DNA from: Candidatus Moranbacteria bacterium RIFOXYA12_FULL_35_19
GTDB taxonomy: Bacteria; Patescibacteriota; Minisyncoccia; Moranbacterales; UBA2206
Assembly (NCBI GenBank): GCA_001784805.1
Contig: MFSE01000013.1
Location: 1 to 55,764, forward strand
DNA: 55,764 bases
Direction of reading: 5' to 3'
Position numbers and translations under genes: made by a program. Each line of letters opens with the position of its first letter. The stretch's first letter is position 1. Below the pieces are notes generated by a model. That model was not told the origin of the DNA. It worked only from the letters and a program-made list of their open reading frames with translations, and did not search any database. Shown piece by piece: positions 6,928 to 55,764 of this stretch.

Positions 6928-6936
6928 AATAAAAAC

Positions 6937-6964
6937 CGGCAGGCACCACGATGGGCGCCTGCCG
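6937..6964. terminator. GC-rich hairpin between convergent genes
   Basis: CGGCAGGC-ACCACGATGGGC-GCCTGCCG, an 8-bp stem preceded by an A-run. It is part of a 34-nt repeat that recurs at 9310-9343. Confidence 0.55.
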
Positions 6965-7043
6965 AATTTGCAAAATTAAATATAATGAGCGGGAAATGTC
7001 CATAAATTTTTCTTTGCTGATACGCAAAGAACATCTTCCAAAG

Positions 7044-7426: not shown

Positions 7427-8281
7427 ATGAGCCTAGAAAATAACCTAAAATCAATTGGATTAGAAGAAAAAGAAGCGCAAGTCTATCTCGCTACTCTTGA
7501 ACTTGGACCAACAAACATTCAAAATCTAGCCAAGAAAGCTGGGATCAAGCGTAGCACTGTCTATGAGATACTACGAAATCTCAAAAACCAAGGCCTTATT
7601 TCCGAAGCTATGCAAGGAAAAAGAAAACTAATCATCGCTTCTTCACCTGACAAACTCAAAAGGAATATCAAAGAAAAAGAAAATTTACTAAATCAAATTT
7701 TGCCAGAGCTAAAATCACTCGACAACGCCGGACCGATCAAACCAAAAATCACTTATTATGAAGGCAGAGAAGGACTTCGCGAAATTTACATGATTGCGCT
7801 GGAAGCGAAAAACAAAAGAGCGGATTGGGTTTCACCTATTCAATCCGTCGTAGAAACAGTTGGAGAAGATTTTTTGGAAAAATATGTCGAAACAAAAAAA
7901 AGAATGGGTTATTGGATTCGTTCCCTTCACATCACTAGTCGCCAAGTATCCACCTACAAATATCTTGATCCAATAACTTTCAAAAAAACTTTGCGTGATG
8001 TTAGATTTTCACCGCAAGACATAGACATTCCAAACACAATTGCAATGTGGGATAATAAGGTAGCTATCATCAGCACTCAAAAAGAAGGTTTTGGATTTAT
8101 AATCGAAAGCAAAGATTTTTCAATCTCAATGAAAATGTTTTACGAATTACTTTGGAACATCAGTAAACCCTATGGCGATATGAATTTTGAGAACAAAAAT
8201 AAAAACGAGGAGAATAAATCCAGCACTATTAACAAAGTGCTGGGCAAGGACGACGACCTAGATTATTGGGCGAAGCAATAA
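7427..8281 (+). CDS. TrmB-family transcriptional regulator, paralog 1
   Basis: N-terminal wHTH EKEAQVYLATLELGPTNIQNLAKKAGIKRSTVYEILRNLKNQGLI plus a TrmB-like C-terminal domain. Confidence 0.8.
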   Translation: MSLENNLKSIGLEEKEAQVYLATLELGPTNIQNLAKKAGIKRSTVYEILRNLKNQGLISEAMQGKRKLIIASSPDKLKRNIKEKENLLNQILPELKSLDNAGPIKPKITYYEGREGLREIYMIALEAKNKRADWVSPIQSVVETVGEDFLEKYVETKKRMGYWIRSLHITSRQVSTYKYLDPITFKKTLRDVRFSPQDIDIPNTIAMWDNKVAIISTQKEGFGFIIESKDFSISMKMFYELLWNISKPYGDMNFENKNKNEENKSSTINKVLGKDDDLDYWAKQ

Positions 8282-9242: not shown

Positions 9243-9345
9243 GAATTATTTTAGTGATGCGTAGTTGTTAATATTTTTGTTAATAATATCGCATCATAAA
9301 AACTTTCTCAAAATAAAAATCGGCAGGCACCACGATGGGCACCAA

Positions 9346-10095
9346 TTATTTTGAATTCTTTGATTGTTTTTTCCTCCAAAGATATTCAAAAATTTCTTTC
9401 ATAGCCAAAGATATCTTTTTGTTTTTAATCAACACTCCAGTTGGTTTTTTTTCATCAAAAGCAACTATCGAAACTTTGTCACCATAAATATTTATTTCGA
9501 TATTTAAATCACGAAAAAGATTAATGAATTTCATTTCTCGAAGCATTTTTTTGACACTTTTAATTTCTCGCTCGCCATCTTCGCTTTTTGGCAAAAGGCT
9601 TTTCACTTTAATCTGATGCTTGATCCTTTGTGGAAAATATTCATTTCTGAAAAAATCTCCCAATGTGCTATAGGCGCTGGCATAATCACAAATAGAATAT
9701 ATAATTTTTTCTTTATTGTCTCTCCAAGAATCATGATATAAATTTTTTACACTTTCTGAACCATTAAAATATTTCATTTCTGAAATAAGAGATTCAGAAT
9801 TAGTATTCTTTTGATTACCAATCCAACCCGCCAATTCTTGATTCTCTTTTTGCATATCACTTTCTCTTCTTTTAGCCCAAAGTAAAAAATCTTGTTTCGA
9901 GATTGGCTGATAAACAGTTTTATTCTCGCTCTTAATCCCAGAAACTAATCCTTTTTCAATTAATTTCTCAATAATTGGATAAAGCGTTGTTCGATTTATC
10001 AATGTCTCTCGGGATAATTCATGCACTGAGCCATTTTGCATTTTGTACAACCCCGCTAAAACTTTCTTTTCTTTTTCGGAAATAAAATTATTCAT
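9346..10095 (-). CDS. TrmB-family transcriptional regulator, paralog 2
   Basis: wHTH LAGLYKMQNGSVHELSRETLINRTTLYPIIEKLIEKGLV. ATG at 10095 preferred because the ORF-track TTG at 10119 lies inside the promoter (TTGACT 10129-10124, TATATT 10107-10102 on the minus strand). Confidence 0.75.
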   Translation of the reverse strand: MNNFISEKEKKVLAGLYKMQNGSVHELSRETLINRTTLYPIIEKLIEKGLVSGIKSENKTVYQPISKQDFLLWAKRRESDMQKENQELAGWIGNQKNTNSESLISEMKYFNGSESVKNLYHDSWRDNKEKIIYSICDYASAYSTLGDFFRNEYFPQRIKHQIKVKSLLPKSEDGEREIKSVKKMLREMKFINLFRDLNIEINIYGDKVSIVAFDEKKPTGVLIKNKKISLAMKEIFEYLWRKKQSKNSK

Positions 10096-10225
10096 ACCTT
10101 CAATATACTCTTTTGTCAAAATTAGTCAACACTTTGACATATTATCAATCTTAAGTTATATTTAACTGTTCCTTAATGTGGGAGTTAGAGATGTTCTTTA
10201 AAAATTTATTACCAAGGAGGGCGTT

Positions 10226-12673: not shown

Positions 12674-12695
12674 AAATCGCCTCATCGGCGATTTT
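12674..12695. terminator. Hairpin AAAATCGCC-TCATC-GGCGATTTT
   Basis: Its GCCTCATCGGC core is the same as in the coding-region cassettes at 35670-35690 and 36762-36782. Flanked by A/T runs. Confidence 0.55.
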
Positions 12696-20026: not shown

Positions 20027-20959
20027 CTATAAAATATGAGCCTTGAAATCATCTGGCAACTCAATTTCGAATTTAAAATTCTGACCGTTTAAATTAAATT
20101 CGATCTTTTTAGCGCAAAGCAAATGTCGAACAATATTTTCTTTTGCTTTCATATTTTTTAGCCGATATTTTTCATCTCCTAAAATTGAATGACCAATCGA
20201 AGAAAGATGAATTCTAATTTGATGCATTCGACCAGTTTTCGGTTTTACTTCTACTAATGAATAGTTTTCAAATTCTTGCAATACTTTATATTCTGTCACG
20301 GCTTCACGAATTTTAGTTTTCGTTTTTGCTCTGGCTATTGTTTGTTTTTTATAATCTGCTGATCGCGCCAATGGCGCATCAATCAAACCTTTTTTATTTT
20401 CCAATTTTCCATACACTAAAGCCCAATATGTTTTTTGAATTTCTCGATTTTTAAATTTACTTTTAAGCACTTCAAATGTTTTTTGATTTCTCGCGACAAG
20501 CATTATCCCGCTAGTATCCTTGTCCAACCGATGCACTATCCCGGGACGATTTTCTGGTTCATCTCCGACTTTTTTTATTTCCGGAAATTTATAAATTAAA
20601 CCATTAACCAAAGTGTCTTGTTCTTTTTTTGCACTCGGATGAACTTGCAACCCCGCCGGTTTATTTATCACAATAATATTTTCATCTTTGTAGATTATTT
20701 CAAATTTAATTTTAGAGCTTGAAATTATTTCTTTTTGTTTCATGCTATATGTTTCATGTTTCATGACTTCAATCGCATCATTCTCTTTTAAAATATAGCT
20801 CGGTTTAACTGTTTTATTATTCACGGTGATATTCCCCGATTTAATATTTCTAATAATTTCCCCGCGGGTAATTTTTTCATCATTCAAAAAAAATCCCTGC
20901 ATTAGGAATCTATCAACTCTTTGACCTGAATTTTCTTTTGTTATAATTATTTTTTTCAT
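20027..20959 (-). CDS. rluD: RluA-family 23S rRNA pseudouridine synthase (RluD-like)
   Basis: S4 domain, then HRLDKDTSGIMLVAR and GRMHQIRIHL motifs. Start set to the ATG at 20959 because the ORF-track extension overlaps tRNA genes. Confidence 0.85.
   Translation of the reverse strand: MKKIIITKENSGQRVDRFLMQGFFLNDEKITRGEIIRNIKSGNITVNNKTVKPSYILKENDAIEVMKHETYSMKQKEIISSSKIKFEIIYKDENIIVINKPAGLQVHPSAKKEQDTLVNGLIYKFPEIKKVGDEPENRPGIVHRLDKDTSGIMLVARNQKTFEVLKSKFKNREIQKTYWALVYGKLENKKGLIDAPLARSADYKKQTIARAKTKTKIREAVTEYKVLQEFENYSLVEVKPKTGRMHQIRIHLSSIGHSILGDEKYRLKNMKAKENIVRHLLCAKKIEFNLNGQNFKFEIELPDDFKAHIL
20737..20767. repeat. CATG-word element inside rluD
   Basis: GTTTCATGCTATATGTTTCATGTTTCATGAC encodes KHETYSMKQ. 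Near-copy of the intergenic 27200-27232. Confidence 0.6.
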
Positions 20960-20962
20960 TTG

Positions 20963-21046
20963 TGCCCAGAAGAGGACTCGAACCTCCAATCCCTTGCGAG
21001 AACCAGTTCCTAAGACTGGCGCGTATACCAATTCCGCCATCTGGGC
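20963..21046 (-). tRNA. tRNA-Leu (anticodon TAG)
   Basis: Hand fold. Acceptor GCCCAGA/TCTGGGC, stem CCAGT/ACTGG, loop CTTAGGA, long variable arm. Confidence 0.85.
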
Positions 21047-21065
21047 AAATTTATTCAATTTTTTC

Positions 21066-21125
21066 TCAATCCCTTGCGGGAATCCCGCCTTGGCGGGACG
21101 CGTATACCAATTCCGCCACCAAGGC
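21066..21125 (-). pseudogene. Decayed tRNA-Leu fragment (CAA-like), lacking T-arm and 3' acceptor
   Basis: The 5' part GCCTTGGTGGCGGAATTGGTATACGCG matches its neighbour's D-arm region exactly. The anticodon hairpin TCCCG-CCAAGG-CGGGA has a 6-nt loop. The variable arm is then followed by an A/T run instead of a T-arm. Confidence 0.6.
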
Positions 21126-21142
21126 AAATATTTTAAACCCAG

Positions 21143-21224
21143 TGCCGATGGTGGGACTTGAACCCACAAACCTTGCGGCACACGAACCTGAATCGTGCGT
21201 GTTTGCCAATTTCACCACATCGGC
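21143..21224 (-). tRNA. tRNA-Leu (anticodon CAG)
   Basis: Hand fold. Acceptor GCCGATG/CATCGGC, stem CACGA/TCGTG, loop TTCAGGT, long variable arm. Confidence 0.85.
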
Positions 21225-22495: not shown

Positions 22496-22536
22496 TTTCG
22501 TACTTTCGTATTTCGTTTATTTCGTATTTCGTAAAA
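22496..22536. repeat. TTTCGTA-word repeat (half element)
   Basis: TTTCGTACTTTCGTATTTCGTTTATTTCGTATTTCGTAAAA. Same word family as 41713-42174, 44998-45085 and 48101-48147. Confidence 0.6.
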
Positions 22537-23203: not shown

Positions 23204-23968
23204 TTATAGCTTTTCTGGTAAAATATTCCAGAGCAAATTAAAGGTTAGTTTTTGAAGCTCAACCAATTCTTTGGATTCTATGATAATCGCCATTTTTTCT
23301 TCCCAAGAAACAATCAGCATTTTGTTGTTATAAATATTTACTTCCGGCGAAAAAGTCATTTCACTTTCTGGCAAAAATCGCGTTTCTCTCATTTCTTCTT
23401 GATTATGCTTTGAGCGTTCAATTGACAATTCATTCTGGGGAATAATAGCCCTGATAAAAATTTTATTTTTTGTTCTTCTAGCATAGTATTCCGGAAAAAA
23501 ATTCGGCAGTCCCTTGTGCATTGTTTCAACATTAGCATAAGCAAAAATAATTCCTTTTGAATTCAAAGTGTCTTCATAGGCTTCTCGCATGCCCTTTTCT
23601 CCTTCAAAAAATTGGATTTTTGGCTTGGCAGTATAGATATTTTGAAGAGAAATAAGTTGTGGTAAAAGTTCGGTGACTTTTTGTTTTTGTTTTTCGATTT
23701 CCTTGTCTTTTTCTTCTTTTTCTCGATCTAAATATGTTAAAAGATGTTTTGGCTCAAGCGCATTGAAAAAAGTCGAGGCGCCTTTTTTATATTTACTAAT
23801 CAACCCTTTTTGAAGCAAAACATCACAAATATCATAAATAGTCGTCCGATTAAGACCTGTTTTCCGAGATATTTCTTTGGCTTTCGCCGAACCCAACTCG
23901 ACAAGAGCCAAATATATCACTGTCTCTTTTTCAGAGAAGTTTAGTTGATTTAGGAGATTTTTTATCAT
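23204..23968 (-). CDS. TrmB-family transcriptional regulator, paralog 3
   Basis: wHTH EKETVIYLALVELGSAKAKEISRKTGLNRTTIYDICDVLLQKGLI. ATG at 23968 preferred because a TTGACA-17-TATACT promoter (24025-23997, minus strand) overlaps the upstream ATG. Confidence 0.75.
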   Translation of the reverse strand: MIKNLLNQLNFSEKETVIYLALVELGSAKAKEISRKTGLNRTTIYDICDVLLQKGLISKYKKGASTFFNALEPKHLLTYLDREKEEKDKEIEKQKQKVTELLPQLISLQNIYTAKPKIQFFEGEKGMREAYEDTLNSKGIIFAYANVETMHKGLPNFFPEYYARRTKNKIFIRAIIPQNELSIERSKHNQEEMRETRFLPESEMTFSPEVNIYNNKMLIVSWEEKMAIIIESKELVELQKLTFNLLWNILPEKL

Positions 23969-24148
23969 TTGTTGTGGAAAATATTTCGACACTTTTAGTA
24001 TATCAAACAAAGACTAGATTGTCAATTTCATAAAATAACCAGTCCACCAATAAACATCCTATCGCAACCTAATATATACTATTTTATTATGATAAAAATA
24101 AGTTTATCATAATAAAAAATAAATCATTTGAAAAAGAGGAGGAGGAAA

Positions 24149-24999: not shown

Positions 25000-25830
25000 A
25001 TGAATAACAAATTAGAAGAATTGGGTTTTAATAAAAAAGAAGCCCGAGTGTATATGGCTCTCTTAGAATCAGGACCGGCTCCTGTTTCTAAAATTGCACG
25101 CTTAGCAAAAATAAACAGAACGACTGGTTATGATATCTTAGAAAGATTAGTAGGGAAAAAACTAGTTAGACCCTCAAAGAAATCGGGAAAAATTGTTTAT
25201 ATAGCTGAAAATCCAGAAAATATTCAAAAACTCTTAGAAGAAGAGGCAAATAATTATTTAAGAATGTCAAAAAAAGCTTGTGAATTATTGCCGAATTTAA
25301 AATCTTTGTATCTTGAGATTGAAAACAAGCCGATTGTCAAATTTTATGAAGGATTAGAAGGCTTAAAATCACTTTATGAAGATAGTTTAACTAGTAGCGA
25401 AGAAATTCGTTCCTATACTTCAACTACTGACTTAAATGAAGTTCTGGGAAAATATGCGGAAGACTATTTTAGTAGAAGATCCTCGAAAAATATTTCTATT
25501 CGATCCATTGTACCAGTAGCTGAATACGGAATTAAGTTAAAACGTAATGGTCCAAAATTAAAGCGCTATGTTAAGCTTGTTCCTTCAGACCGCTTTGGCT
25601 TTTCGCCAGAAATCTATATTTATGATAACAAACTAACCGTTATGTCTTTACGAGAACGTTTTGGAGTTTATATTGAGAGCAAGGAAATATCTGAAGCGCT
25701 AAAAAAATCTTATGAACTTGCATGGGAACAAGCTGATAAATATGATAGAAAAATTGAAGAAGATATAAAAGCTGGCAAAGAAATTACCTTAACAAAAAAC
25801 GGTAAGCTTTATAAAAAATCCTTACAGTAA
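25000..25830 (+). CDS. TrmB-family transcriptional regulator, paralog 4
   Basis: wHTH KKEARVYMALLESGPAPVSKIARLAKINRTTGYDILERLVGKKLV. Confidence 0.8.
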   Translation: MNNKLEELGFNKKEARVYMALLESGPAPVSKIARLAKINRTTGYDILERLVGKKLVRPSKKSGKIVYIAENPENIQKLLEEEANNYLRMSKKACELLPNLKSLYLEIENKPIVKFYEGLEGLKSLYEDSLTSSEEIRSYTSTTDLNEVLGKYAEDYFSRRSSKNISIRSIVPVAEYGIKLKRNGPKLKRYVKLVPSDRFGFSPEIYIYDNKLTVMSLRERFGVYIESKEISEALKKSYELAWEQADKYDRKIEEDIKAGKEITLTKNGKLYKKSLQ

Positions 25831-27232: not shown

Positions 27233-27976
27233 TTATATCGCCACACTATTCCAAATCATATCAAAAATTGCCTTTTGCGCTTCGGCAAATTCGTGCGATT
27301 GGATAATAAAGCCTAATTTTTCCTCTTTCGTCGAAATCATCGCTACCTTGTCATCATAAATACAAACATATGGCTTGATAATAATTTCTTCTGGTACAAA
27401 CCGCACCTCGCGAAGTTCTTTGGCATGAATGATACCAGCTTCTCTTTCGGGTTTATATTTAAAAGAACGCAACGCTTGACTCTTGATTCCAGTCTTAATT
27501 CTTCTTTCTACAAAATCATCCACAAATTCCTTGCCCATCAACTCTTCCAAGTTAAAATCTGAAAGATAATATCTTTCTTTTTTCTCTTTATTGGTAAGAG
27601 CGTCTTCAAAAAGTTTTTTCATCCCACTGATATTTCGATAAATTTTAATTTCTGGTTGATAAATACCTGCGCCAAAAATATTTTTTAATTCAGGAATTGA
27701 ATATTGAATGATTTTTTTTCTTTCTTCTAGCAAATTATTCAGGCTAATTTCAGGATCTTCTGCTACGTAGAACTTTTTATTATCCAAAATAATTTGAACT
27801 ACCAAATTTTTTCCAAGCAAAGAATCCAAGCAATGATAAACGGTTGTTCTTTTGACTTCTGCCAATCTAGCAATCTGAGCCACAGTCGCTTTTTTGAGCT
27901 TTAAAAGAGCCAAATAAATGTCTTTTTCTTTGCCCAAAATACCTAAATATTCAAAATTTTTATCTAAATTTTCCAT
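27233..27976 (-). CDS. TrmB-family transcriptional regulator, paralog 5
   Basis: wHTH KEKDIYLALLKLKKATVAQIARLAEVKRTTVYHCLDSLLGKNLV. Confidence 0.8.
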   Translation of the reverse strand: MENLDKNFEYLGILGKEKDIYLALLKLKKATVAQIARLAEVKRTTVYHCLDSLLGKNLVVQIILDNKKFYVAEDPEISLNNLLEERKKIIQYSIPELKNIFGAGIYQPEIKIYRNISGMKKLFEDALTNKEKKERYYLSDFNLEELMGKEFVDDFVERRIKTGIKSQALRSFKYKPEREAGIIHAKELREVRFVPEEIIIKPYVCIYDDKVAMISTKEEKLGFIIQSHEFAEAQKAIFDMIWNSVAI

Positions 27977-30683: not shown

Positions 30684-32264
30684 CTATTCTACCCAATACT
30701 TCTTCTTCATTAATTCTTCCTCCTCTTTTTTTTCTTCTTCAATTTTTTTCTTAGCCATCACGCGAAGATCGTTAAGATCTTTTTTATTTAAAGCTTTCGC
30801 CAAATTTAATAAATCTTTTTTATTATTCAGTTTTTGATCATCAATCACCTCGGCTAGCATCACATCCAAGATTGCCCCGATTTTTGGTCCGGGTTGGATT
30901 TTTAAATCTTGAATTAGATCATTGCCATTAATTGCAAGCTGTTTAACTGAAATGGCATCATGCGAAACTTTTTCTACCATGAATTTGAAATGGCGCAGTT
31001 TGTATGGCACGGCTTTGGCCACGCCTGAACCCAACCGATCAGCAATTCGTACATCGATTAAATCATTGATATTTTCCACGCCAACTTTTTGCACTACCCG
31101 ACGCACACCTGATTCACCCACTTCATCTATGTTGTAGTAGAACATATGATTTTTCACAAGCATCACAGTTTTCTCAATAATTTTCCGAGGATATTTCATC
31201 CGTTCCAAAATTTTCTCCACCATTTTTGCCCCAACATATTCGTGCGAATAGAAAGTTGCCATTTCTCCCTCGCCTCTTTTTGATTTCGGTTTTCCAATGT
31301 CATGCAAAAATGAAGCCAAGCGCACTTCCAATTTTTCTGACGGACATTTTTCCAAACTTGCAAGAAGATGGGCATAAACCGTATTGTATGGTCCAAAATA
31401 ATGATGACGGTTTTGTTTCACGCCAATAGTTCCCAAAATTTCAGGAATAAAATAATCGATCAATTTTGTTTCCATTAAAAGTTCCACGCCCTTGCTTGGA
31501 TTTTTTGAAAGAATTATTTTATCAAATTCATCTCTAATTCTTTCGATTGAAACATATTTTAGATTTTTAGCATTTTTCTTAATCGCCTCGAAAGTTTTTT
31601 CTTCAATCTCCCATTCGCCTTCCCCCTTCTCCTTTATAAGGAGAGGGTTGCCCGCCTGCCGGCGAGGCAGGAGGTGAGGTGTATTTCTTCCGAGCTGAAC
31701 AGCGAAACGGATCGCTCTCATCATCCGAAGCGCATCCTCATCAAATCTTTCCCCCGCCTCCCCCACCGCGCGAATTATTTTATTCTTAAGATCTTTTTGC
31801 CCGCTGAACAAATCGATAATTTCATATTTGTTTTTTGTTTCATATTTCATGTTATATGTTACATGAATTGCCATAGCATTCACCGTAAAATCTCTTCTCG
31901 AAAGATCTTCTTCCAAAGTTTTGGCAAATTTCACCTCGTCTGGATGACGCTTGTCAGAATATTTTGATTCAATGCGATATGTCGTTATTTCCACATTCGG
32001 CCCATCCCAATCTTTTTCTTCTACGCCCTCAATATATTTCAAAGGCAACATCACTGTCCCAAAATCATTTTCATATTTCCCATCCGGAAAAATTTTCAAA
32101 ATCTCTTTCGGCTTCGCATTAGTCGCCACATCCCAATCCTTCGGATCCGCTCCCAATAATAAATCCCTCACACATCCACCCACCACAAACGCCTCAAAAC
32201 CAGCCCCTTCGAGCTTTCCAATAACTTCTATTATATAATGTGGAAATTCTATTTTTTTAGTCAT
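30684..32264 (-). CDS. cca: CCA-adding tRNA nucleotidyltransferase with HD domain
   Basis: GGCVRDLLLG and RRDFTVNA head-domain motifs, then an HD domain (FLHDIGK). 12 of the 13 tRNA genes here lack an encoded CCA. Confidence 0.85.
   Translation of the reverse strand: MTKKIEFPHYIIEVIGKLEGAGFEAFVVGGCVRDLLLGADPKDWDVATNAKPKEILKIFPDGKYENDFGTVMLPLKYIEGVEEKDWDGPNVEITTYRIESKYSDKRHPDEVKFAKTLEEDLSRRDFTVNAMAIHVTYNMKYETKNKYEIIDLFSGQKDLKNKIIRAVGEAGERFDEDALRMMRAIRFAVQLGRNTPHLLPRRQAGNPLLIKEKGEGEWEIEEKTFEAIKKNAKNLKYVSIERIRDEFDKIILSKNPSKGVELLMETKLIDYFIPEILGTIGVKQNRHHYFGPYNTVYAHLLASLEKCPSEKLEVRLASFLHDIGKPKSKRGEGEMATFYSHEYVGAKMVEKILERMKYPRKIIEKTVMLVKNHMFYYNIDEVGESGVRRVVQKVGVENINDLIDVRIADRLGSGVAKAVPYKLRHFKFMVEKVSHDAISVKQLAINGNDLIQDLKIQPGPKIGAILDVMLAEVIDDQKLNNKKDLLNLAKALNKKDLNDLRVMAKKKIEEEKKEEEELMKKKYWVE
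31619..31683. repeat. GC-rich palindromic module block inside cca
   Basis: CCCCTTCTCCTTTATAAGGAGAGGG + CCCGCCTGCCGGCGAGGCAGG + AGGTGAGGT, the same modules as at 36087-36162. Encodes TPHLLPRRQAGNPLLIKEKGEG on the minus strand. Confidence 0.7.
31838..31868. repeat. CATG-word element inside cca
   Basis: GTTTCATATTTCATGTTATATGTTACATGAA encodes HVTYNMKYET. Confidence 0.55.
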
Positions 32265-33145: not shown

Positions 33146-33889
33146 ATGATAAAAAACATTTTCAAAAAACAGCTGATTAGTCTTGGTTTTAGTGATCACG
33201 AGGCGGATATCTATCTAGTTCTACTAGAAAATGGACATTCTTCGACTGGACCAATTATCAAAAAAACTAATTTGCATCGAAATATCGTCTATGAAACACT
33301 AAATAAGTTAGTTAACAAGAAATTTGTTTCTGAATCTAATCAACGAGGCATAAAACACTACAAAGCTCTCAATCCAGAAAAAATATTGCATCATAAAGAA
33401 GAACAATTCAATCTTGCTCAAAATCTAATCCCCCAACTTAAGGATTTACAAACTAAAGAAAAAGTTGAGGTAGTTTTATATGAAGGTTTAAGCGGTTTTC
33501 AGACAGCTCTTAAAAACGCAATTGATAGAATTGCTCCCAATCAAAATATATTGGTTTTAGCAACTGGAGGAGAATTTTTTTACAAAAATATTGGCAATGC
33601 TCTTAAATATTACGACAAAAAAAGAAAAGAGAAAAAAATCAATATCAAAATGATTTATCAATCTTCCAAAAACGAAAGCCTGGCAAAAACTACACGCCTT
33701 AGACCACTTATGGAAGTTAAATATATTGAATCTCCTTTTTTGCCAATTTCTGAAATTGAAATTATGGAAAATACAATTTTAATGCAAATTTATTCTGATC
33801 CTCCCGTGGTAATTGAAATATCCAGCAAAGAAGTCGCTGATAGTTATAGAAATCACTTTACTGATCTTTGGGAGAAAGCTAAAAAATAA
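33146..33889 (+). CDS. TrmB-family transcriptional regulator, paralog 6
   Basis: wHTH DHEADIYLVLLENGHSSTGPIIKKTNLHRNIVYETLNKLVNKKFV. Confidence 0.75.
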   Translation: MIKNIFKKQLISLGFSDHEADIYLVLLENGHSSTGPIIKKTNLHRNIVYETLNKLVNKKFVSESNQRGIKHYKALNPEKILHHKEEQFNLAQNLIPQLKDLQTKEKVEVVLYEGLSGFQTALKNAIDRIAPNQNILVLATGGEFFYKNIGNALKYYDKKRKEKKINIKMIYQSSKNESLAKTTRLRPLMEVKYIESPFLPISEIEIMENTILMQIYSDPPVVIEISSKEVADSYRNHFTDLWEKAKK

Positions 33890-35234: not shown

Positions 35235-37115
35235 ATGATGAGTTTAATTTCTAAATTTTGGAATAATTTCAAAAATCAACCAGACATTTGGTTCTTTTTT
35301 GGGTTTTTATTAACTTTTACGCTAAGTATTAGGAAAGTAGTGTTATACTTTCTAATCCAAGGAACTTTCAATGAATATTCCGGAGTATTTATCTACCTTT
35401 CAGATGTTTTTCTAATTTTAACTCTAGTTTTCTGGTTTATATCTATATTATGCAATGATTTTACTGTTTTGTCAAGGTATAGGTTGTGGATAAGTAGTGC
35501 TTTCCACAAGTTATACATATTTTTACCCCTATTTTTAGTTTTTCTTTCTTTTATATCAATATTATGGTCACCCAATCAGTCAATAGCACTTTTTCGATCA
35601 TTCAAGCTTTTGGAGTTTTATTTACTATATATTTATATTATTTTTAGATTTGCTCCACAATTGTTCCACCCGCCTCATCGGCGGACAAACGTGGAACAAA
35701 ATACACCTCATCCTAACCTTCTCCTTATTAAGGAGAAGGAACTTGCCCCCCTCTCCTTTATAAGGAGAGGGGCTGGGGGTGAGGTAGAAATTGTTCCACG
35801 TGGAACATTTAATGCTTTCTCTTGGATTATAATACTATCCGGTCTCTTTCAAGCCACAATTGGCATAATTCAATTTTTCCTGCAAACATCTGTTGGTCTT
35901 TTTTTCCTTAAAGAAAGCCTAATTTCACCAAACATCCTCGGGGTCGCCAAAATAATCTTAAATGGAGAAATATATATCCGCGCCTATGGCCTTATGCCAC
36001 ATCCTAATGTTTTGGGTGGATTATTGCTATTTTCTATTATTATCACATTATTATATAAAAAAATGTTCCACGTGGAACATCAACTGCCCCCCTCTCCTTT
36101 ACAAGGAGAGGGGCAGGGGGTGAGGTTAAGCGATGTTCCACGCCCGTCTGCCGGCGAGGCAGATGGAACAATTAAAGAAAAATATTATTCTATGCTAAAT
36201 TGTTCCACGTGGAACAATTGGATAATTGAAAATAATTGGTTTTTTAGGCTCATATTAGCTATTCAAATTTTAGCGCTAATTTTAACATTCTCAAAATCAG
36301 CCATAATTGGGCTATTAATTGCTTTAGCTTATATAATTGTTCCATGTGGAACATTCAATATTCCCTTCTTCTTTATAAGGAGAAGGGCTGGGGATGAGGT
36401 ATGCGATTGTTCCATGTGGAACATTTTTGGGCGGGTGGAACATTTGAAATTAATAATACTCTCGATCTTAATTATTTTAGTATCTATATTTATCATAATC
36501 AAACCCAATTTGAACTCTTTATTTTTTAACTCCTTCGATGAGCGCGTATTTTATCTAAATGTTCCACGTGGAACATTTGGGAGTGATCCAGTCTTAGGAA
36601 TTGGCGCAGGACAATCAGTTATAATGATGCAAAAATTTTATTCTCAAACTTTAGAATTCTGGCAATATCAGCCTATTCATAATGTTTTTCTGCTAATATT
36701 TAGCGAACTAGGATTGCTTGGGTTGGGATTATTTGTTTGGTGGTTATGGAAATTGTTCCACCCGCCTCATCGGCGGACAAGCGTGGAACAATTTAAAAAT
36801 TCACCTCATCCTAACCTTCTCCTTATTAAGGAGAAGGAACTTGCCCCCCTCTCCTTTATAAGGAGAGGGGCAGGGGGTGAGGTTAAAATTGTTCCACGTG
36901 GAACAATAGAAAATAATGACTACATATTACACAATAATAATACATATTTGTCAAGTGCTATATTTTCTCGATATTTTACCGGAATTCTTTTAGGCCTCAT
37001 TTTTATTATGCTTTTTGACCATTATATCTGGGATATCCAACAGGGAAGCCTCCTATTTTGGCTAACTGCCAGCTTTGTTGCTGGGATATGCAAAAAATAT
37101 TCCCTTCATAATTAA
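35235..37115 (+). CDS. O-antigen ligase/polymerase-like (Wzy_C) membrane protein with five in-frame repeat blocks
   Basis: Many TM helices. FSKSAIIGLLIALAYI, GIGAGQ and HNVFLLIFSELGLLGLGLF resemble O-antigen ligase family motifs. The ORF stays open across all repeat blocks. Confidence 0.6.
   Translation: MMSLISKFWNNFKNQPDIWFFFGFLLTFTLSIRKVVLYFLIQGTFNEYSGVFIYLSDVFLILTLVFWFISILCNDFTVLSRYRLWISSAFHKLYIFLPLFLVFLSFISILWSPNQSIALFRSFKLLEFYLLYIYIIFRFAPQLFHPPHRRTNVEQNTPHPNLLLIKEKELAPLSFIRRGAGGEVEIVPRGTFNAFSWIIILSGLFQATIGIIQFFLQTSVGLFFLKESLISPNILGVAKIILNGEIYIRAYGLMPHPNVLGGLLLFSIIITLLYKKMFHVEHQLPPSPLQGEGQGVRLSDVPRPSAGEADGTIKEKYYSMLNCSTWNNWIIENNWFFRLILAIQILALILTFSKSAIIGLLIALAYIIVPCGTFNIPFFFIRRRAGDEVCDCSMWNIFGRVEHLKLIILSILIILVSIFIIIKPNLNSLFFNSFDERVFYLNVPRGTFGSDPVLGIGAGQSVIMMQKFYSQTLEFWQYQPIHNVFLLIFSELGLLGLGLFVWWLWKLFHPPHRRTSVEQFKNSPHPNLLLIKEKELAPLSFIRRGAGGEVKIVPRGTIENNDYILHNNNTYLSSAIFSRYFTGILLGLIFIMLFDHYIWDIQQGSLLFWLTASFVAGICKKYSLHN
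35661..35807 (+). repeat. Composite palindromic element A1 (147 nt, 49 codons)
   Basis: GTTCCAC[21-nt hairpin]GTGGAAC, then CCTTCTCCTTATTAAGGAGAAGG, CCCCTCTCCTTTATAAGGAGAGGGG, GGGGGTGAGGT and TGTTCCACGTGGAACA. Confidence 0.85.
36063..36218 (+). repeat. Composite palindromic element B
   Basis: ATGTTCCACGTGGAACAT, then CCCCCCTCTCCTTTACAAGGAGAGGGGCAGGGGGTGAGGT, then GTTCCAC[GCCCGTCTGCCGGCGAGGCAG]ATGGAAC, then ATTGTTCCACGTGGAACAAT. Confidence 0.85.
36338..36442 (+). repeat. Composite palindromic element C
   Basis: Two TGTTCCATGTGGAACA palindromes flank CCCTTCTTCTTTATAAGGAGAAGGGCTGGGGATGAGGT. An inverted half-copy GGGCGGGTGGAACA follows. Confidence 0.8.
36558..36577 (+). repeat. Solo palindrome AATGTTCCACGTGGAACATT
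   Basis: 20-bp perfect palindrome encoding NVPRGTF. Confidence 0.8.
36753..36905 (+). repeat. Composite palindromic element A2 (153 nt, 51 codons)
   Basis: Near-identical to A1. It differs by a few substitutions and one 6-nt indel. Confidence 0.85.
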
Positions 37116-41747: not shown

Positions 41748-42132
41748 AATCTAAATTTACTACTCTTTTGTATCTCACGCCTTCGCTAGTAAAAGTAATT
41801 ATTATACCTAATCTTAGATTTGTAGCTTTGAGATATTTATACAATTGATTAATATCCTTACTAGAAATAAAATTTCTTTGTTTTATTTCTAAAATAATTT
41901 TATTAAATATTAGAAAATCAAAAATATAAATTCCTAAATCTTCTTCTTTATATTTAACTTTATACCTTAATTGTTCTTTAAATTCAAAACCATTATCCGT
42001 GAACTCTTTAGCTAGAGCTTTTTGAAAAAAATTCTCTTTATGCCCAAATCCTAATTTCTTAAATACTCTAAAAACCACTCCCATTATTCGATAACATTCT
42101 TCGGCATATATTAAATTCTTTTTTGTTTTCAT
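41746..42132 (-). CDS. GxxExxY-family protein (PD-(D/E)XK nuclease fold)
   Basis: LGFGHKENFFQKALAKEF (GxxExxF variant) and DFLIFNKIILEIKQ (D...ExK). Confidence 0.7.
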   Translation of the reverse strand: MKTKKNLIYAEECYRIMGVVFRVFKKLGFGHKENFFQKALAKEFTDNGFEFKEQLRYKVKYKEEDLGIYIFDFLIFNKIILEIKQRNFISSKDINQLYKYLKATNLRLGIIITFTSEGVRYKRVVNLD

Positions 42133-42140
42133 TTTTTATT

Positions 42141-42174
42141 TTTCGTAATTTCGTATTTTTTCGTAGTTCGTAAA
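42141..42174. repeat. TTTCGTA-word hairpin arm (right arm around the GxxExxY gene)
   Basis: TTTCGTAATTTCGTATTTTTTCGTAGTTCGTAAA. Confidence 0.7.
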
Positions 42175-44871: not shown

Positions 44872-44997
44872 GACTTTACGGTTAATTATTAAGAAAAATG
44901 AATAGGGGATGGTTTAATCCCTGTTTATACCCAGCTTAGGCTGTGGATAAAGTCTTAATAATTTCCTTTAATTGAGGGAATTTTTATTTTTTTAATC

Positions 44998-45085
44998 TTT
45001 ACGAACTACGAAATGACCGAAATACGAAACATTTAAAATACCTTTCGTACTTTCGTATTTAGTATTTATTTCGTAGTTCGTAAAC
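44998..45085. repeat. Complete TACGAAA/TTTCGTA word-hairpin (empty version)
   Basis: TTTACGAACTACGAAATGACCGAAATACGAAAC, a loop of about 12 nt, then TTTCGTACTTTCGTATTTAGTATTTATTTCGTAGTTCGTAAAC. Ends 9 nt before the rpsA ATG. Confidence 0.75.
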
Positions 45086-47117: not shown

Positions 47118-48083
47118 ATGTCTAACTTAATCAAAAAAGTTCAGAATATAATCTTTCAAAATAATCTCTTTGACCGCGGAGCAAAAATAATTTTGGCGGT
47201 TTCTGGCGGACCAGACAGTGTTTGCATGCTTGATATTTTTTCGCGTCTACAAAAAAAATATTCACTAGAACTTATTATCGCGCATGTGAATTATAATTTG
47301 CGTGGAAATGATAGTAAAAAAGATGCCGAATTCGTGCAGAAATTAGCGGAAAAATATAATCTAGAAATTTTTGCTTTGGATTTGGTAGAGACGAGGCATG
47401 CCTCGTCTCTACGCGACGGGAAAAATATTTCGGAAAATTATCTGCGCGAAATTCGTTATGATTTTTTTGAAAAACTTCGCATGGAAAATAATTTTGATGC
47501 TATCGCTGTCGCACATAACGCCGATGATCAAGTAGAAACATTTTTAATGCGCATTATTCGTGGCAGTGGAATGTCAGGACTTTCTGCGATGAAATTTAAG
47601 AATGAAAAAATAATTCGACCGTTGCTTTCAATTAGTCGCCAAGAAATTTTGCAGTATTTGAAAATCAACAAGCTGAAATATCGCACAGATAAAACGAATG
47701 CACAGAATTTATTTCTTAGAAACAAGATTCGAAACAACCTTATTCCGCTTTTGGAAAAAAATTTCAATTCTAAAATCAAAGAAACTATTTTTGATTCTTT
47801 GATTTCAATTTCGCAGGATTCCGATTATCTTGAAAAGACTGCTCTAAAAAATTCAAATAGTTTAGAAATCAAAAAACTAGAAAAACTACATCCGGCAATT
47901 CTTCGAAGAGTCTTACGCAATAATTTAAAAAACATAAAAGGAGATTTGAAAAATATCAGTGCTAATAGCATTGAAGAAATCATAAAAATCATAAAAAGCA
48001 CGAAAAACAAAACCCAAACTGTAATAATGTTAGGGTTGAAAATTATTCGAAAGAATGATAAAATCGTAATTAGTAAATTGTAA
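47118..48083 (+). CDS. tilS: tRNA(Ile)-lysidine synthetase
   Basis: PP-loop ILAVSGGPDSVCML and the HNADDQVETFLMRIIRGSG motif. Confidence 0.9.
   Translation: MSNLIKKVQNIIFQNNLFDRGAKIILAVSGGPDSVCMLDIFSRLQKKYSLELIIAHVNYNLRGNDSKKDAEFVQKLAEKYNLEIFALDLVETRHASSLRDGKNISENYLREIRYDFFEKLRMENNFDAIAVAHNADDQVETFLMRIIRGSGMSGLSAMKFKNEKIIRPLLSISRQEILQYLKINKLKYRTDKTNAQNLFLRNKIRNNLIPLLEKNFNSKIKETIFDSLISISQDSDYLEKTALKNSNSLEIKKLEKLHPAILRRVLRNNLKNIKGDLKNISANSIEEIIKIIKSTKNKTQTVIMLGLKIIRKNDKIVISKL
47385..47412. repeat. Perfect 28-bp GC-rich palindrome inside tilS
   Basis: GTAGAGACGAGGCA|TGCCTCGTCTCTAC encodes VETRHASSLR. Confidence 0.8.
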
Positions 48084-48100: not shown

Positions 48101-48147
48101 TTCGAACTTTCGTATTTTCGTAATTTCGTTTTATTCGTAGTTCGTAA
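48101..48147. repeat. TTTCGTA-word repeat (half element) upstream of ftsH
   Basis: TTCGAACTTTCGTATTTTCGTAATTTCGTTTTATTCGTAGTTCGTAA. Confidence 0.6.
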
Positions 48148-48149
48148 TT

Positions 48150-53738: not shown

Positions 53739-55764
53739 TTATATTTTCTTAATTGGTGCAATTGAAGCGGAAAGTTTTTTAAGTCCTGATTTAGAAAATG
53801 CTACAGTGATTATATCCCCCGCGCTGGCGACAATCAAGCCATCACCAAAAACCTCGTGTCGCACTCTATCGCCATCCTTAAAACATGAGACATGAAGCAT
53901 GAAGCATGAAACATCTTTTTCTAAAACTTGTTTATTTTCACTACTTTTATTCTTGCTACATGTTTCATGCCTGCCTGTCCGGTAGGCAGGTTTCATGTTA
54001 TATGACTTCAGTAAGTGCGGTGGTATATCGTCCAGAAATCGACTTGGCGCATTAATTTGAGTAGAACCAAAAATATTTCTCATACGAGTAAAAAGCAAAT
54101 AAACTTTTTCCATTGCCCGAGTTACCCCGACATACATCAGCCGTCTTTCTTCTTCCATTTCACCGTCATCTAACATACTTCGGGAATGGGGCAAAATTCC
54201 TTCTTCCAACCCCGCGATAAAAACAATCTTAAATTCCAAACCTTTCGCGCTATGAAGCGTCATAAGATGTACTGCATCTTTCGCTTGGTCAATATTATCC
54301 GTATCAGAAACCAAAGCTACTTCTTCTAGAAATAATCTTAAACCCTCATTACTTTCATACTCGCTATATTTTTTGGCGACCGTCAAAAGTTCGCGTACAT
54401 TTTCATTTCTCATTTCTCCTTCCTCCGTTCCATCCATCAGAAATTTTTCATATCCTGATTCGCTATAAACTTTTTGAATGAAATCCGTAAGAATCAATTT
54501 TTCTTTAAGTTCACTCATTCTCTTAATAAATTCTGAAAACTTAACTATCGCATCAATTTTAGAAATTTGTATTTTATTTTTTGGAACCTGCCTGCCGGTA
54601 GGCAAAGTTTGATCATTAGAATTTGAAAATTCATTGGAAATTGCGAGGCCACAAGATATTAAATCTAAATTATTACTCCTAGCTATATTAATCCATTTTC
54701 CCAAAGTAATATCCCCGACGCCTCGCCTCGGTTCATTAATTATTCTTTCCAACGAAGTTTCGTCATTGAAATTGTTAATCAAACGCAAATAAGCAATTAT
54801 ATCTTTAATTTCTTTTCTTTGATAAAATTTCACTCCACCAATAATTCGGTAGGGAATAGAATTTCTAAGCATTGCTTCCTCAATCATCCGTGATTGCGCA
54901 TTGGTGCGATACAGCACCACAAAATCGGAAAACTTTAGTTTTCCGTCCTGAGCGCTTGCCTGCCGATGAGGCAGGAAAGCGAAGGACCCCATCCTATTAC
55001 CGCATAACTTCTTTATTTCACTTACGATAAACTGCGCTTCTTCTTTTTCATCTTCCGCTTCAAAGCTAAATAGCAAATGTCCGCTCTTATTATCCGTCCA
55101 AATTTTTTTGTCTTTGCGATTGATATTTTTAGAAATCACGCCATAAGCCGCGTCCAAAATGTTCTGCGTGGAACGATAATTTTGTTCGAGTTTTATTATT
55201 TTTGCCTCGGGATAATCTTTTTCAAAATCTAAAATATTTTGAATGTTGGCTCCGCGCCATGAATAAATTCCTTGCCAGTCATCGCCCACCACGCACAGAT
55301 TTTTATATTTTTGCGATAATAATTTTACCAAAAGATATTGCGCATAATTAGTATCTTGATATTCATCCACCATAATATATTGGAAAAAGTTTTGATATTT
55401 TTCCAAAACTTCTGGAAATTTTTGAAAAATCTTAACTGTGATCATCAAAATATCATCAAAGTCCAAAGCGTCTTGTTCCTTCAATTTTTTCTGGTAATTT
55501 AAATATATTTTTGCCACCATTTCTTCAAAATATCCGCCCACTCCCGCTAAAAAATCTTCTGGCCCAATTAGTTCATTTTTTGCTTTGGAAATTGCACCTA
55601 AGATTGTTTTAGGTTTAAATTGATCAATATTTATTTCCATTTCTTTCATCACTTTTTTTATCAGCGCTAATTGATCTTGATCATCAAAAATATTAAAGGA
55701 ACTTTCGTATCCCACCTTCTCAATTTCCCGCCTTAAAATTTTCACACAAATAGAATGAAAAGTC
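53739..55764 (-). CDS. pcrA: UvrD/PcrA-family ATP-dependent DNA helicase; 5' end beyond the window
   Basis: MVDEYQDTNYAQY, NYRSTQNIL, MTLHSAKGLEF and YVGVTRA motifs. The Walker A region is absent because the ORF runs to the window edge. Confidence 0.9.
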   Translation of the reverse strand, partial: TFHSICVKILRREIEKVGYESSFNIFDDQDQLALIKKVMKEMEINIDQFKPKTILGAISKAKNELIGPEDFLAGVGGYFEEMVAKIYLNYQKKLKEQDALDFDDILMITVKIFQKFPEVLEKYQNFFQYIMVDEYQDTNYAQYLLVKLLSQKYKNLCVVGDDWQGIYSWRGANIQNILDFEKDYPEAKIIKLEQNYRSTQNILDAAYGVISKNINRKDKKIWTDNKSGHLLFSFEAEDEKEEAQFIVSEIKKLCGNRMGSFAFLPHRQASAQDGKLKFSDFVVLYRTNAQSRMIEEAMLRNSIPYRIIGGVKFYQRKEIKDIIAYLRLINNFNDETSLERIINEPRRGVGDITLGKWINIARSNNLDLISCGLAISNEFSNSNDQTLPTGRQVPKNKIQISKIDAIVKFSEFIKRMSELKEKLILTDFIQKVYSESGYEKFLMDGTEEGEMRNENVRELLTVAKKYSEYESNEGLRLFLEEVALVSDTDNIDQAKDAVHLMTLHSAKGLEFKIVFIAGLEEGILPHSRSMLDDGEMEEERRLMYVGVTRAMEKVYLLFTRMRNIFGSTQINAPSRFLDDIPPHLLKSYNMKPAYRTGRHETCSKNKSSENKQVLEKDVSCFMLHVSCFKDGDRVRHEVFGDGLIVASAGDIITVAFSKSGLKKLSASIAPIKKI
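53880..54010. repeat. CATG-word inverted repeat with an embedded 21-nt GC hairpin, inside the helicase gene
   Basis: AAAACATGAGACATGAAGCATGAAGCATGAAACATC (53880-53914) faces GCTACATGTTTCATG[CCTGCCTGTCCGGTAGGCAGG]TTTCATGTTATATGACTTC (53955-54010). Confidence 0.75.
54945..54987. repeat. GC-rich layered hairpin inside the helicase gene
   Basis: GTCCTGAGCGCTTG-CCTGCC-GATGA-GGCAGG-AAAGCGAAGGAC encodes GSFAFLPHRQASAQD. A degenerate copy lies at 54587-54607 (LPTGRQV). Confidence 0.7.

Follow-up and report, generated by a model that had tools for sequence, protein, structure and literature searches.

Why should a short palindrome, repeated within one bacterial membrane-protein gene, be split at its exact centre by small GC-rich hairpins? 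The question arises in the 55,764-nt stretch of Moranbacteria DNA that was analysed here as a whole (the window). The original prediction described 21-nt hairpins splitting three copies of a 14-bp host motif at the dyad and a fourth such hairpin in a helicase gene, and these sequences are exactly as it gave them; the related cores that it listed near 12679, 31651 and 54959 are present as well. The hairpin at 12679 is intergenic, has no demonstrated insertion and looks terminator-like by eye; a terminator at this hairpin was not called by the terminator scan. We consider it rather probable that two things are combined at this locus: an array of parS sites lies within a Wzy_C gene, and this array has been colonised by small mobile GC hairpins that favour the dyad.

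We first take the host motif, which had been treated as a mere genomic palindrome. By its sequence, the 14-bp motif is parS, TGTTCCACGTGGAACA, the canonical centromere site to which ParB binds, and a literature search with the motif string returned ParB/parS papers exclusively. The parS sites of P. aeruginosa and P. putida are TGTTCCACGTGGAACA, that of M. xanthus is TGTTCCACGTGGAACG, and the 16-bp palindrome studied here fits the published parS consensus TGTTNCACGTGAAACA (PMC7022226; PMC3899335). Its extended consensus is AAWTGTTCCACGTGGAACAWTT, and the core consensus over 537 copies is T-GTTCCACGTGGAAC-A, a 16-mer in which the flanking T and A are invariant in 536/537 and 537/537 copies, respectively. 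This core equals the Pseudomonas ParB site at 16 of 16 bases and differs from the Myxococcus consensus at the last base alone. In one locus (L084), all 14 copies are the other canonical parS variant, GTTTCACGTGAAAC. Chromosomal parS/ParB (Spo0J) systems share the core, the GTTTCAC half-site variant and the occurrence of several clustered copies, as in the dense M. xanthus cluster of 22 sites in 3 kb (PMC7022226; PMC3899335). The present array differs from known parS in that every copy lies inside one open reading frame, in three frames and in Wzy_C loops, across 80 species.

This confinement was measured in the Wzy genes and flanks of 80 related Moranbacteria and Parcubacteria genomes. The GTTYCACGTGRAAC site occurs 609 times in 137 kb of Wzy genes (80 species) and 0 times in 1.16 Mb of flanks, with a median of 7 parS per gene (range 1–18, 80 genes); all sites fall within the one gene. 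In the window, the eight unsplit copies (five exact, two with a one-base difference) and all three split copies are inside ORF 35235-37115, and the pattern GTTCCAC-N(0-30)-GTGGAAC has seven matches against 0.00 expected (100 shuffles). A dispersed mobile palindrome was contradicted by the 0 copies outside one gene at 80 loci, and the string search then gave parS. Could the palindrome instead be a gene-specific mobile or recombination site, such as a MITE end junction or a shufflon-like element, whose parS identity is coincidental? We regard this as very improbable. It would account for the lack of a nearby ParB gene, the nesting of the palindrome in other hairpins as if mobile, and the resemblance of parS-bounded modules to elements with terminal repeats; yet it leaves unexplained the complete match to the Pseudomonas site with its invariant flanking bases and the switch of a whole lineage to another known parS variant, it would lead us to expect copies in the flanks too, and a symmetric core gives a recombinase no direction. 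An inversion site was rejected on the same symmetry and on the flanks outside the modules, which encode transmembrane helices in one orientation; an unsystematic look noticed no rearranged assemblies.

A metagenome scan with the 22-mer found mostly single sites in high-GC bacteria, some of which adjoin ParB genes; a ParB gene was present in 17 of 120 loci picked solely by this 22-mer, which speaks for the parS identity. Wzy genes were the only loci with six or more sites, a result that is confounded as a test of gene restriction because parS is universal. A scan of viral contigs gave chiefly single matches.

The window's entire array thus sits in one ORF, whose reading frame is open through every insert, and an identical 626-aa protein is encoded on nine contigs from NCBI, ENA and JGI assemblies (Table 1). 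All three frames are used in reading the parS copies (VPRGT, CSTWN, FHVEH), which fall in loop regions of the Wzy protein, and in the window the modules lie between its hydrophobic 19-mers. Among the 80 Wzy genes there are 41 occurrences of the variant GTTTCACGTGGAAC, from which the VSRGT version of the YLNV[PS]RGT motif would be translated. An example peptide predicted from an insert-bearing Wzy ORF is VPRPSAGEADGT. The gene contains two copies of a composite module of about 150 bp (parS with cassette, two GGAG-type hairpins, parS), one at 35659-35807 and the other at 36751-36905, which are 96% identical over 110 nt (families D4, D14). The filled sites at 35663 and 36755 are therefore not independent, because both belong to this duplicated module. 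The first of them has a predicted coaxial hairpin fold of -13.5 kcal/mol, and at 36135-36169 the right half-site has decayed to ATGGAAC. The nest of parS in a GC hairpin in parS, represented in the window by its right part, is complete in locus L010, and the spacing of parS, 12 nt and GTGGAAC occurs 27 times in related loci.

Table 1. Positions in the window of the Wzy_C gene, its parS sites and hairpin elements, and of cassettes in two other genes
Feature	Positions	Strand	Basis or remark
Wzy_C (O-antigen-ligase-like) membrane-protein ORF, 626 aa	35235..37115	+	ORF list; Pfam PF04932
parS split at dyad by 21-nt cassette CCGCCTCATCGGCGGACAAAC (35670-35690)	35663..35697	.	GTTCCAC[CCGCCTCATCGGCGGACAAAC]GTGGAAC
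Inverted GGAG-type hairpin pair: H 35704-35739, G 35745-35785	35704..35785	+	families D1, D3
Intact parS, read VPRGT	35793..35806	.	pattern match
Intact parS, read FHVEH	36065..36078	.	pattern match
G hairpin element	36086..36126	+	repeat family
parS split at dyad by 21-nt cassette GCCCGTCTGCCGGCGAGGCAG (36142-36162)	36135..36169	.	GTTCCAC[GCCCGTCTGCCGGCGAGGCAG]ATGGAAC
Intact parS, read CSTWN	36202..36215	.	pattern match
parS variant GTTCCATGTGGAAC	36339..36352	.	
Diverged G hairpin element	36361..36400	+	D3, 73% identity
parS variant (36409-36422), then ATTTTT-GGGCGG-GTGGAAC	36409..36441	.	right part of nest of parS in GC hairpin in parS
Solo parS within conserved YLNV[PS]RGT, all aligned homologues	36561..36574	.	
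parS split by 21-nt cassette CCGCCTCATCGGCGGACAAGC (36762-36782)	36755..36789	.	equals 35663 site with one A->G
Second copy of H+G hairpin pair	36802..36883	+	D4, 96% identity
Intact parS	36891..36904	.	pattern match
G element in CCA-adding enzyme gene (30684-32264, -), with nested 21-nt cassette GCCCGCCTGCCGGCGAGGCAG at 31650-31670	31619..31681	-	
21-nt cassette GCCTGCCTGTCCGGTAGGCAG in PcrA/UvrD helicase gene, between pre-existing tandem heptamers	53969..53989	-	
Likely additional 21-nt cassette in PcrA gene, encoding TLPTGRQVP	54583..54607 (approximate boundaries)	-	
21-nt cassette GCTTGCCTGCCGATGAGGCAG in PcrA gene, encoding ASLPHRQ, nested within outer ~18-aa insert	54954..54974	-	

We now turn to the inserts. 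In contrast to known parS arrays, a minority of these putative ParB-binding sites is split at the dyad by hairpins: with relaxed half-sites, 51 filled sites stand against 609 unsplit ones in the 80 genes. The prediction that inserts are always 21 nt long did not survive the larger sample, where lengths range from 20 to 47 nt and 21 nt accounts for 22 of the 51; the others are 20, 22, 30, 33, 34, 36, 39, 42, 45 and 47 nt, with 21 and 42 nt the commonest. Multiples of three make up 43 of the 51, the exceptions including two 20-nt inserts in L074 and two 22-nt inserts in L061. The predicted centring held throughout: in a scan of the 16-bp site over 81 sequences, GC-rich inserts occur at cut position 8 only (with an ambiguity of ±1) and 0 occur at other cuts. 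Thus, of the two outcomes that were to count against the prediction, variable lengths were found and off-centre inserts were not. Selective survival, and not targeting, could be part of the reason for such centring.

These are true insertions, as had been supposed, since orthologous empty sites exist at the DNA level. At the Wzy site that follows WWLWK, L005 and L014 have an empty parS (L005 with the same flanks), and the window's 36755 site, L008 and L023 carry 21 additional nucleotides; at filled sites, the parS halves show neither duplication nor loss. At least eight distinct cassette families occupy parS dyads, all consisting of a 2-6-nt leader and a hairpin with a shared CYGCC/GGCRG stem. 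The cassettes have a modal length of 21 nt and folding z-scores of -3.5 to -6.6, and in folding calculations they stack coaxially on the parS stem, which has a free energy of -6.5 kcal/mol by itself and of -11.6 to -22.5 kcal/mol with the cassette. An origin of cassette C in the variable arms of class II tRNAs found no support in L007, where two look-alike sites lie outside the tRNAs called by ARAGORN.

Two further explanations bear on these properties. If the split sites were functional centromere variants, helical-turn spacing (21 bp for about two turns, 42 bp for about four) would have been selected through ParB half-site binding or through hairpin-tuned loading. Some ParBs do bind the half-sites GTTCCAC/GTTTCAC (PMC7022226), the two commonest lengths agree with such phasing, and both half-sites are perfect in 30 of the 51 filled sites. 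We nevertheless judge this decidedly unlikely: inserts of 30, 33, 36, 39 and 45 nt misfit helical phasing, the same cassettes occur in genes that have no parS, and imperfect half-sites are about 2.8-fold commoner at inserts than at unfilled sites (perfect to imperfect, 30:21 filled versus 537:136 unfilled). It is extremely unlikely that the GC hairpins arise in situ, by instability or repair at the palindrome centre rather than by copying. Their invariable centring and their self-complementarity, which extends the parS hairpin, are what such a process would give; it would not give identical 21-mers in five species and unrelated contexts, a CYGCC/GGCRG stem common to all families, the PcrA insertion at a non-palindromic site, or the same cassette at unrelated loci of one genome, as has been partly seen.

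Cassettes outside the Wzy gene separate copying from local events. In the PcrA gene, the site at 53961-53997 reads TGTTTCATG[CCTGCCTGTCCGGTAGGCAGG]TTTCATG, and its cassette at 53969 appears as a 7-aa indel against four orthologues and as an exact 21-nt gap against the DNA of L327 and L328. The target is the junction of two direct heptamers, is non-palindromic, and already holds both heptamers when empty (AACATGAAA/CATGAAACAT); the insertion adds exactly 21 nt, with no target-site duplication of the kind expected of a MITE. The 54954 cassette likewise corresponds to a 7-aa indel in alignment with P0122 and P0136, and its outer insert is missing in P0131-P0134. In a protein alignment of a variable region, the candidate at 54583 seems to add about 7 aa compared with P0125/P0132. 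For the CCA-adding enzyme gene, orthologues exist in three states (empty, G element only, and G element plus 21 nt), and the cassette entered beside the G hairpin, not at its tip. Elements are therefore nested, as predicted, both here and in the L010 parS nest. At three loci, a Wzy parS site, PcrA and the CCA gene, insertion was clean: exactly 21 nt were added and no target was duplicated. Five species share the identical 21-mer GCCTGCCTGTCCGGTAGGCAG, which is found in either orientation and both within and outside parS.

These observations divide the earlier proposal that hairpin tips are targeted in a structure-specific manner. The dyad inserts agree with it, but tips are not the sole target, given the heptamer junction in PcrA and the position beside the hairpin in the CCA gene; a heptamer-junction rule is weakly sampled because the non-parS targets are few (about six). 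They also bear on whether one rare insertion into parS was followed by gene conversion alone among identical parS copies, with no mechanism that targets the dyad. The two near-identical filled sites of the window share the duplicated module, the 11-bp symmetric arms AAWTGTTCCAC/GTGGAACAWTT would supply homology on both sides, and their symmetry would explain the occurrence of both orientations (L052). Conversion alone is unlikely, however, because dyads in different species are filled by at least eight unrelated cassettes, 20-45 nt long, suggesting independent origins, because the same 21-mers have also entered non-parS sites (PcrA, CCA gene) whose orthologues are proven to be empty, and because the centring of each family's first event would go unexplained.

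Under the combined reading of a parS array colonised by mobile hairpins, the centromere in Moranbacteria and related Parcubacteria would consist of 1-18 parS copies within one Wzy_C coding sequence, and the 21-nt inserts would represent a family of tiny GC-rich hairpin elements copied cleanly into new places. Their favoured target would be the exact parS dyad, and in other genes they also enter adjacent direct-heptamer junctions and the interior of further small hairpin elements. What these targets may share is a single-stranded tip or loop, of a palindrome or a slipped repeat, that is exposed in replication, and insertion could proceed by a structure-specific nick or a template switch. With its symmetric arms, a filled parS may then pass on its insert, or an entire parS-bounded module, to other parS copies by gene conversion; the duplication of the ~150-bp module within the gene was counted in favour of such conversion. 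Within ORFs, only stop-free inserts of 3n length would survive, and half-sites may decay because splitting would deprive parS of full-site ParB loading. A narrower version, in which this CPR centromere in a membrane-protein reading frame is colonised by 21-nt elements, among the smallest mobile elements described, that home to the ParB-bound parS dyad, is rather doubtful. Homing might follow ParB binding or the extrusion of a parS hairpin that exposes the dyad phosphodiester; if it does occur, inserts switch centromere sites off, and new parS units in the loops restore them.

Several known families of small repeats resemble the cassettes. Elhai et al. (2008, Genome Res 18:1484) reportedly found that the small dispersed repeats SDR1-8 of Nostocaceae lie within tandem heptamers and inside one another, and both features recur here, the heptamers in PcrA. 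According to PMC4390886 and PMC5861425, SDRs are reported in Nostocaceae only, and SDR5 inserts precisely in the HIP1 palindrome GCGATCGC, between nucleotides 3 and 4; the cassettes share the ~21-27-nt hairpin form and the precise insertion within a short over-represented palindrome. They differ from SDR5/HIP1 in using the exact dyad, in a host palindrome that is a site of known function confined to one gene, and in their mostly in-frame coding copies. We regard them as an analogue of SDRs and not as members, because the host is a CPR lineage, SDRs are reported in Nostocaceae only, and the likeness is one of description.

Rickettsia palindromic elements (RPEs), which are ~100-150 bp long, are said to be selfish and to lie in frame within genes of a reduced AT-rich genome, where the added peptide is tolerated (Ogata et al. 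2000, by report); we know of no reported targeting of a specific palindrome or centromere site by them. In-frame insertion is shared, whereas size (21-45 nt here) and lineage set the cassettes apart from RPEs. Yeast mitochondrial GC clusters, and the hairpin and double-hairpin elements of fungal, sponge and placozoan mitochondria, are likewise short, GC-rich and palindromic; they reside in AT-rich genomes, sometimes in frame in genes, and are often nested or arrayed. These elements are organellar and belong to other sequence families, and yeast GC clusters make short target duplications, in contrast to the PcrA insertion. REP/REPIN-RAYT systems also comprise short GC-rich hairpins of 20-40 nt in many copies. 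REPs are extragenic with GTAG/CGTC heads (PMC3733652); the cassettes are mostly intragenic, start with GCC and have no RAYT in the 55.8-kb window, which places them outside this group.

An ORF-embedded centromere array in at least 80 species, with its DNA kept in three frames, would be a case of cis-acting DNA placement in a compact genome. It would offer a ready marker of the segregation locus, and perhaps of the origin region, in uncultured CPR bacteria. The cassettes would provide a second, independent case of ~21-nt mobile elements that insert without duplication at one exact palindrome bond. How such tiny elements move has been a question since the cyanobacterial SDRs, and it is testable here because a protein that binds the target is known and natural pairs of empty and filled sites are plentiful.

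Literature searches on CPR with palindromic elements or ParB found nothing relevant. The original prediction had suggested looking for an associated nuclease or transposase. Among the scanned ORFs of the 55.8-kb window there is no RAYT/Y1 transposase, and the single HNH ORF has no visible tie to the cassettes. Searches for ParB, ParA and DnaA genes came up empty, both in the window and, at every one of the 80 loci, in the DNA up to 10 kb from the Wzy gene. An HMM for ParB, trained on the metagenome loci, had no match in the Moranbacteria flanks, and a search for a DnaA-box cluster found none. Proximity of the array to the origin is only suggested by two features of its surroundings, which a coding-strand bias could mimic: at the Wzy gene, the mean GC skew over the 80 loci changes from about -0.13 to +0.05, and gene orientation switches too.

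The four cassette-bearing sequences of the original prediction are all present in the window as described, and the 14-bp palindrome that it named as the host motif is real, although its sequence leads us to reinterpret it as a putative centromere site, parS. The pattern GTTCCAC-N(0-30)-GTGGAAC matches the window seven times, with 0.00 expected. There are eight unsplit 14-mer copies with up to two mismatches; seven lie inside a single open reading frame of the Wzy_C/O-antigen-ligase family, which also contains all three split copies, and the eighth, in the helicase gene with two mismatches, is probably a chance match. The split sites at 35663 and 36755 should not be counted as independent cases: each lies in one of the gene's two copies of a ~150-bp module. 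This Wzy frame is uninterrupted despite twelve or more GC-rich inserts. The source is a metagenome-assembled genome of Candidatus Moranbacteria (CPR/Patescibacteria), and nine contigs from separate assemblies (NCBI, ENA and JGI) encode the identical protein, which rules out an artefact of a single assembly.

A full-text literature string search with GTTCCACGTGGAAC returned only ParB/parS papers. The chromosomal centromere consensus is TGTTNCACGTGAAACA, with TGTTCCACGTGGAACA in P. aeruginosa and P. putida and TGTTCCACGTGGAACG in M. xanthus (PMC7022226, PMC3899335), and some ParBs bind the half-sites GTTCCAC or GTTTCAC by themselves (PMC7022226). The host motif has the sequence that defines parS. 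We compared Wzy homologues and their flanks of 10 kb per side in 80 species of Moranbacteria and relatives, where the exact 14-mer occurs 537 times in Wzy genes versus 0 times in 1.14 Mb of flanks, and sites with the Y/R consensus number 609 within Wzy genes (1 to 18 per gene, median 7) and 0 outside. Perfect copies overwhelmingly prevail: 537 match exactly, 81 differ at one base and 55 at two. The T on the 5′ side and the A on the 3′ side of the 14-mer are invariant, yielding a 16-bp parS, and the wider consensus is a 22-bp palindrome, AAWTGTTCCACGTGGAACAWTT. In one Wzy gene (L084:10198-11786), all 14 parS copies are the other canonical variant, GTTTCACGTGAAAC, and none is GTTCCACGTGGAAC; such a concerted, symmetric switch suggests co-evolution with the binding protein. 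Metagenome loci with at least six sites are Wzy genes, and a ParB gene lies within the fetched stretch in 17 of the 120 metagenome loci, which were picked by the 22-mer alone. One contig resembles Moranbacteria, its gyrA being 74% and its CCA enzyme 64% identical to those of the loci; it breaks off in tandem repeats of a ~186-bp unit with parS, five sites in about 250 bp (L315:13584-13836), and no Wzy match is visible up to the break.

In a protein alignment of Wzy homologues 40-70% identical, the motif falls at equivalent loop positions but in different reading frames (translated as VPRGT, CSTWN or FHVE[HQ]); the motif is therefore conserved at the DNA level. Its modules sit between hydrophobic segments of the protein. 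The gene order is also conserved, with the CCA enzyme (minus strand) followed by Wzy (plus strand) and gyrA, and at the Wzy gene the GC skew, taken as the mean over all 80 loci, changes from about -0.13 to +0.05, which is compatible with, but no proof of, an origin-proximal location. No gene for ParB, ParA or DnaA turned up in the window or in the 10-kb flanks of Wzy in any locus. Perfect DnaA boxes (TTATCCACA) occur only twice in the window. Published counts range from 1 to about 23 parS sites per genome, and M. xanthus has a dense cluster of 22 in 3 kb (PMC3899335); the literature searched gives no precedent for an array wholly within one conserved open reading frame.

To count filled sites, we required half-sites with at most two mismatches and a GC-rich insert, which gave 51 sites in 81 sequences. 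The predicted fixed insert length of 21 nt is refuted: it holds for 22 sites, and the others measure 20 nt (3 sites), 22 nt (2), 30 nt (7), 33 nt (3), 34 nt (2, both containing NN), 36 nt (1), 39 nt (1), 42 nt (6), 45 nt (3) and 47 nt (1), with 43 of the 51 lengths divisible by three. The predicted centring, on the other hand, is strengthened by a scan in which the 16-mer was cut at each position in turn: GC-rich inserts enter parS only at its dyad (position 8, to within ±1 because of shared bases). Apparent inserts at off-dyad cuts were AT-rich chance matches. The cassettes at dyads comprise at least eight unrelated sequence families, in both orientations, all with a CYGCC/GGCRG stem and a short leader. 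Folded as single strands, filled sites form one coaxial hairpin, with free energies of -11.6 to -22.5 kcal/mol versus -6.5 kcal/mol for an empty site. Half-sites are imperfect at 21/51 filled versus 136/673 unfilled sites, consistent with constraint being lost after the split. The cassette core at 35670 (CCGCCTCATCGGCGG) resembles the variable arm of the window's tRNA-Ser (CGCCTCACCGGCG) and two sites near tRNA genes in a related locus (L007:1243 and L007:20546); the likeness may either have arisen by chance convergence among stable GC hairpins or point to the cassette's origin.

Comparisons of orthologous DNA prove clean insertion in the Wzy, PcrA and CCA genes. At the Wzy position after WWLWK, parS is empty in L005 and L014, the former sharing the window's downstream hairpin module; in the window 21 nt are added between the same flanks, and L008 and L023 carry different 21-mers. 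The PcrA helicase gene reads AACATGAAA, CCTGCCTACCGGACAGGCAGG, CATGAAACAT in the window and AACATGAAA directly followed by CATGAAACAT in L327 and L328, a difference of exactly 21 nt at the junction of two pre-existing tandem heptamers; insertion thus proceeds without target duplication. Another exact 7-aa indel is nested within an older PcrA insert, and a second further one, in a variable region of the protein, is probable. For the CCA-adding enzyme, most orthologues have no insert; a ~60-nt GGAG-type hairpin element is present in L006, L008 and L009, and the window has this element together with exactly 21 nt more. The elements therefore nest, as predicted: in L010, a GC hairpin at the WWLWK dyad contains a complete second parS in its loop, and L006 and L012 have there a dyad palindrome whose 17-19-nt arms enclose a complete parS. 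The inserts are copied elements, the 21-mer GCCTGCCTGTCCGGTAGGCAG being identical across five species at parS, PcrA and one other site. Outside parS, cassettes also occur at tandem-heptamer junctions in L025 and L081 and in the middle of a different palindrome in L012. Within the Wzy gene, parS-bounded modules are themselves duplicated.

The cassettes behave like the small dispersed repeats (SDRs) of Nostocaceae, where SDR5 enters the HIP1 palindrome precisely between nucleotides 3 and 4 (PMC4390886, PMC5861425); they are set apart from that family by lineage, and the likeness is one of behaviour rather than of compared sequence. The definitions of REP/RAYT, MITE and RPE elements do not fit them. 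We propose that the target may be the single-stranded tip or loop that a palindrome or a slipped tandem repeat exposes on folding during replication. The symmetric 11-bp parS arms could enable spread by gene conversion, persistence in the frame would be limited to stop-free inserts of 3n length, and filled sites would lose full ParB loading. No insertion enzyme was recognised; the window's HNH frame, XerC-like recombinase and PD-(D/E)XK protein have no visible link to the cassettes.

Coordinates of features in the window
Feature	Position	Remark
Wzy gene	35235-37115 (+)	626 aa
Unsplit 14-mer match	55161	helicase gene
tRNA-Ser variable arm	1661-1691	
DnaA box	35485-35493	inside 5′ part of Wzy gene
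DnaA box	44942-44950	near 1.1-kb gene-poor stretch (42.85-44.0 kb) with another switch in gene orientation
GGAG-type elements	31619-31681, 35704-35785, 36086-36126, 36802-36883	
PcrA tandem heptamers	53870-53925	C-terminal region; also in L327
TTCGTA-type heptamer arrays	22497-22528, 42121-42174, 45044-45084, 48101-48148	intergenic, upstream of genes
CGGCAGGCACCACGATGGGC, full hairpin	6935-6966	GC-rich; 3′ of gene; A-run before, T-rich sequence after
CGGCAGGCACCACGATGGGC, truncated	9320-9343	
TrmB-family genes	7427-8281, 9346-10119, 23204-24010, 25000-25830, 27233-27976, 33146-33889	
Pseudouridine synthase	20027-21181	GTG start
tRNA-Leu genes	20962-21046, 21142-21224	
Palindrome GAGACGAGGCATGCCTCGTCTC	47388-47409	perfect, 22 bp, GC-rich; TilS-like gene

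The GGAG-type elements have the structure CCCCTCTCCTT-TATA-AAGGAGAGGGG with a GGGTGAGGT tail, in which a Shine-Dalgarno-like AAGGAG pairs with an anti-SD-like CTCCTT; they are translated in-frame in two genes, and 27 of 43 copies in related loci adjoin parS, with 16 elsewhere. In PcrA, (GCTTCAT)x4 encodes SCFMLHASCF and adjoins the (CATGAAA)x2 cassette target; the frame shifts with every heptamer, and the region is nonetheless conserved in orthologues. Some Moranbacteria have PcrA homologues about 370 aa longer (P0129, P0163, P0168, P0228 and P0230; 1096-1128 aa) with intein or Hint domains (PF14890, PF01079), which the window's PcrA lacks. In L008 and L009, a 44-nt GC hairpin directly adjoins a TTCGTA-type array. 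The pseudouridine synthase frame overlaps two tRNA-Leu genes, and its true start therefore lies further downstream. The six TrmB-family regulator paralogues lie within 27 kb, unusually dense for a small genome.
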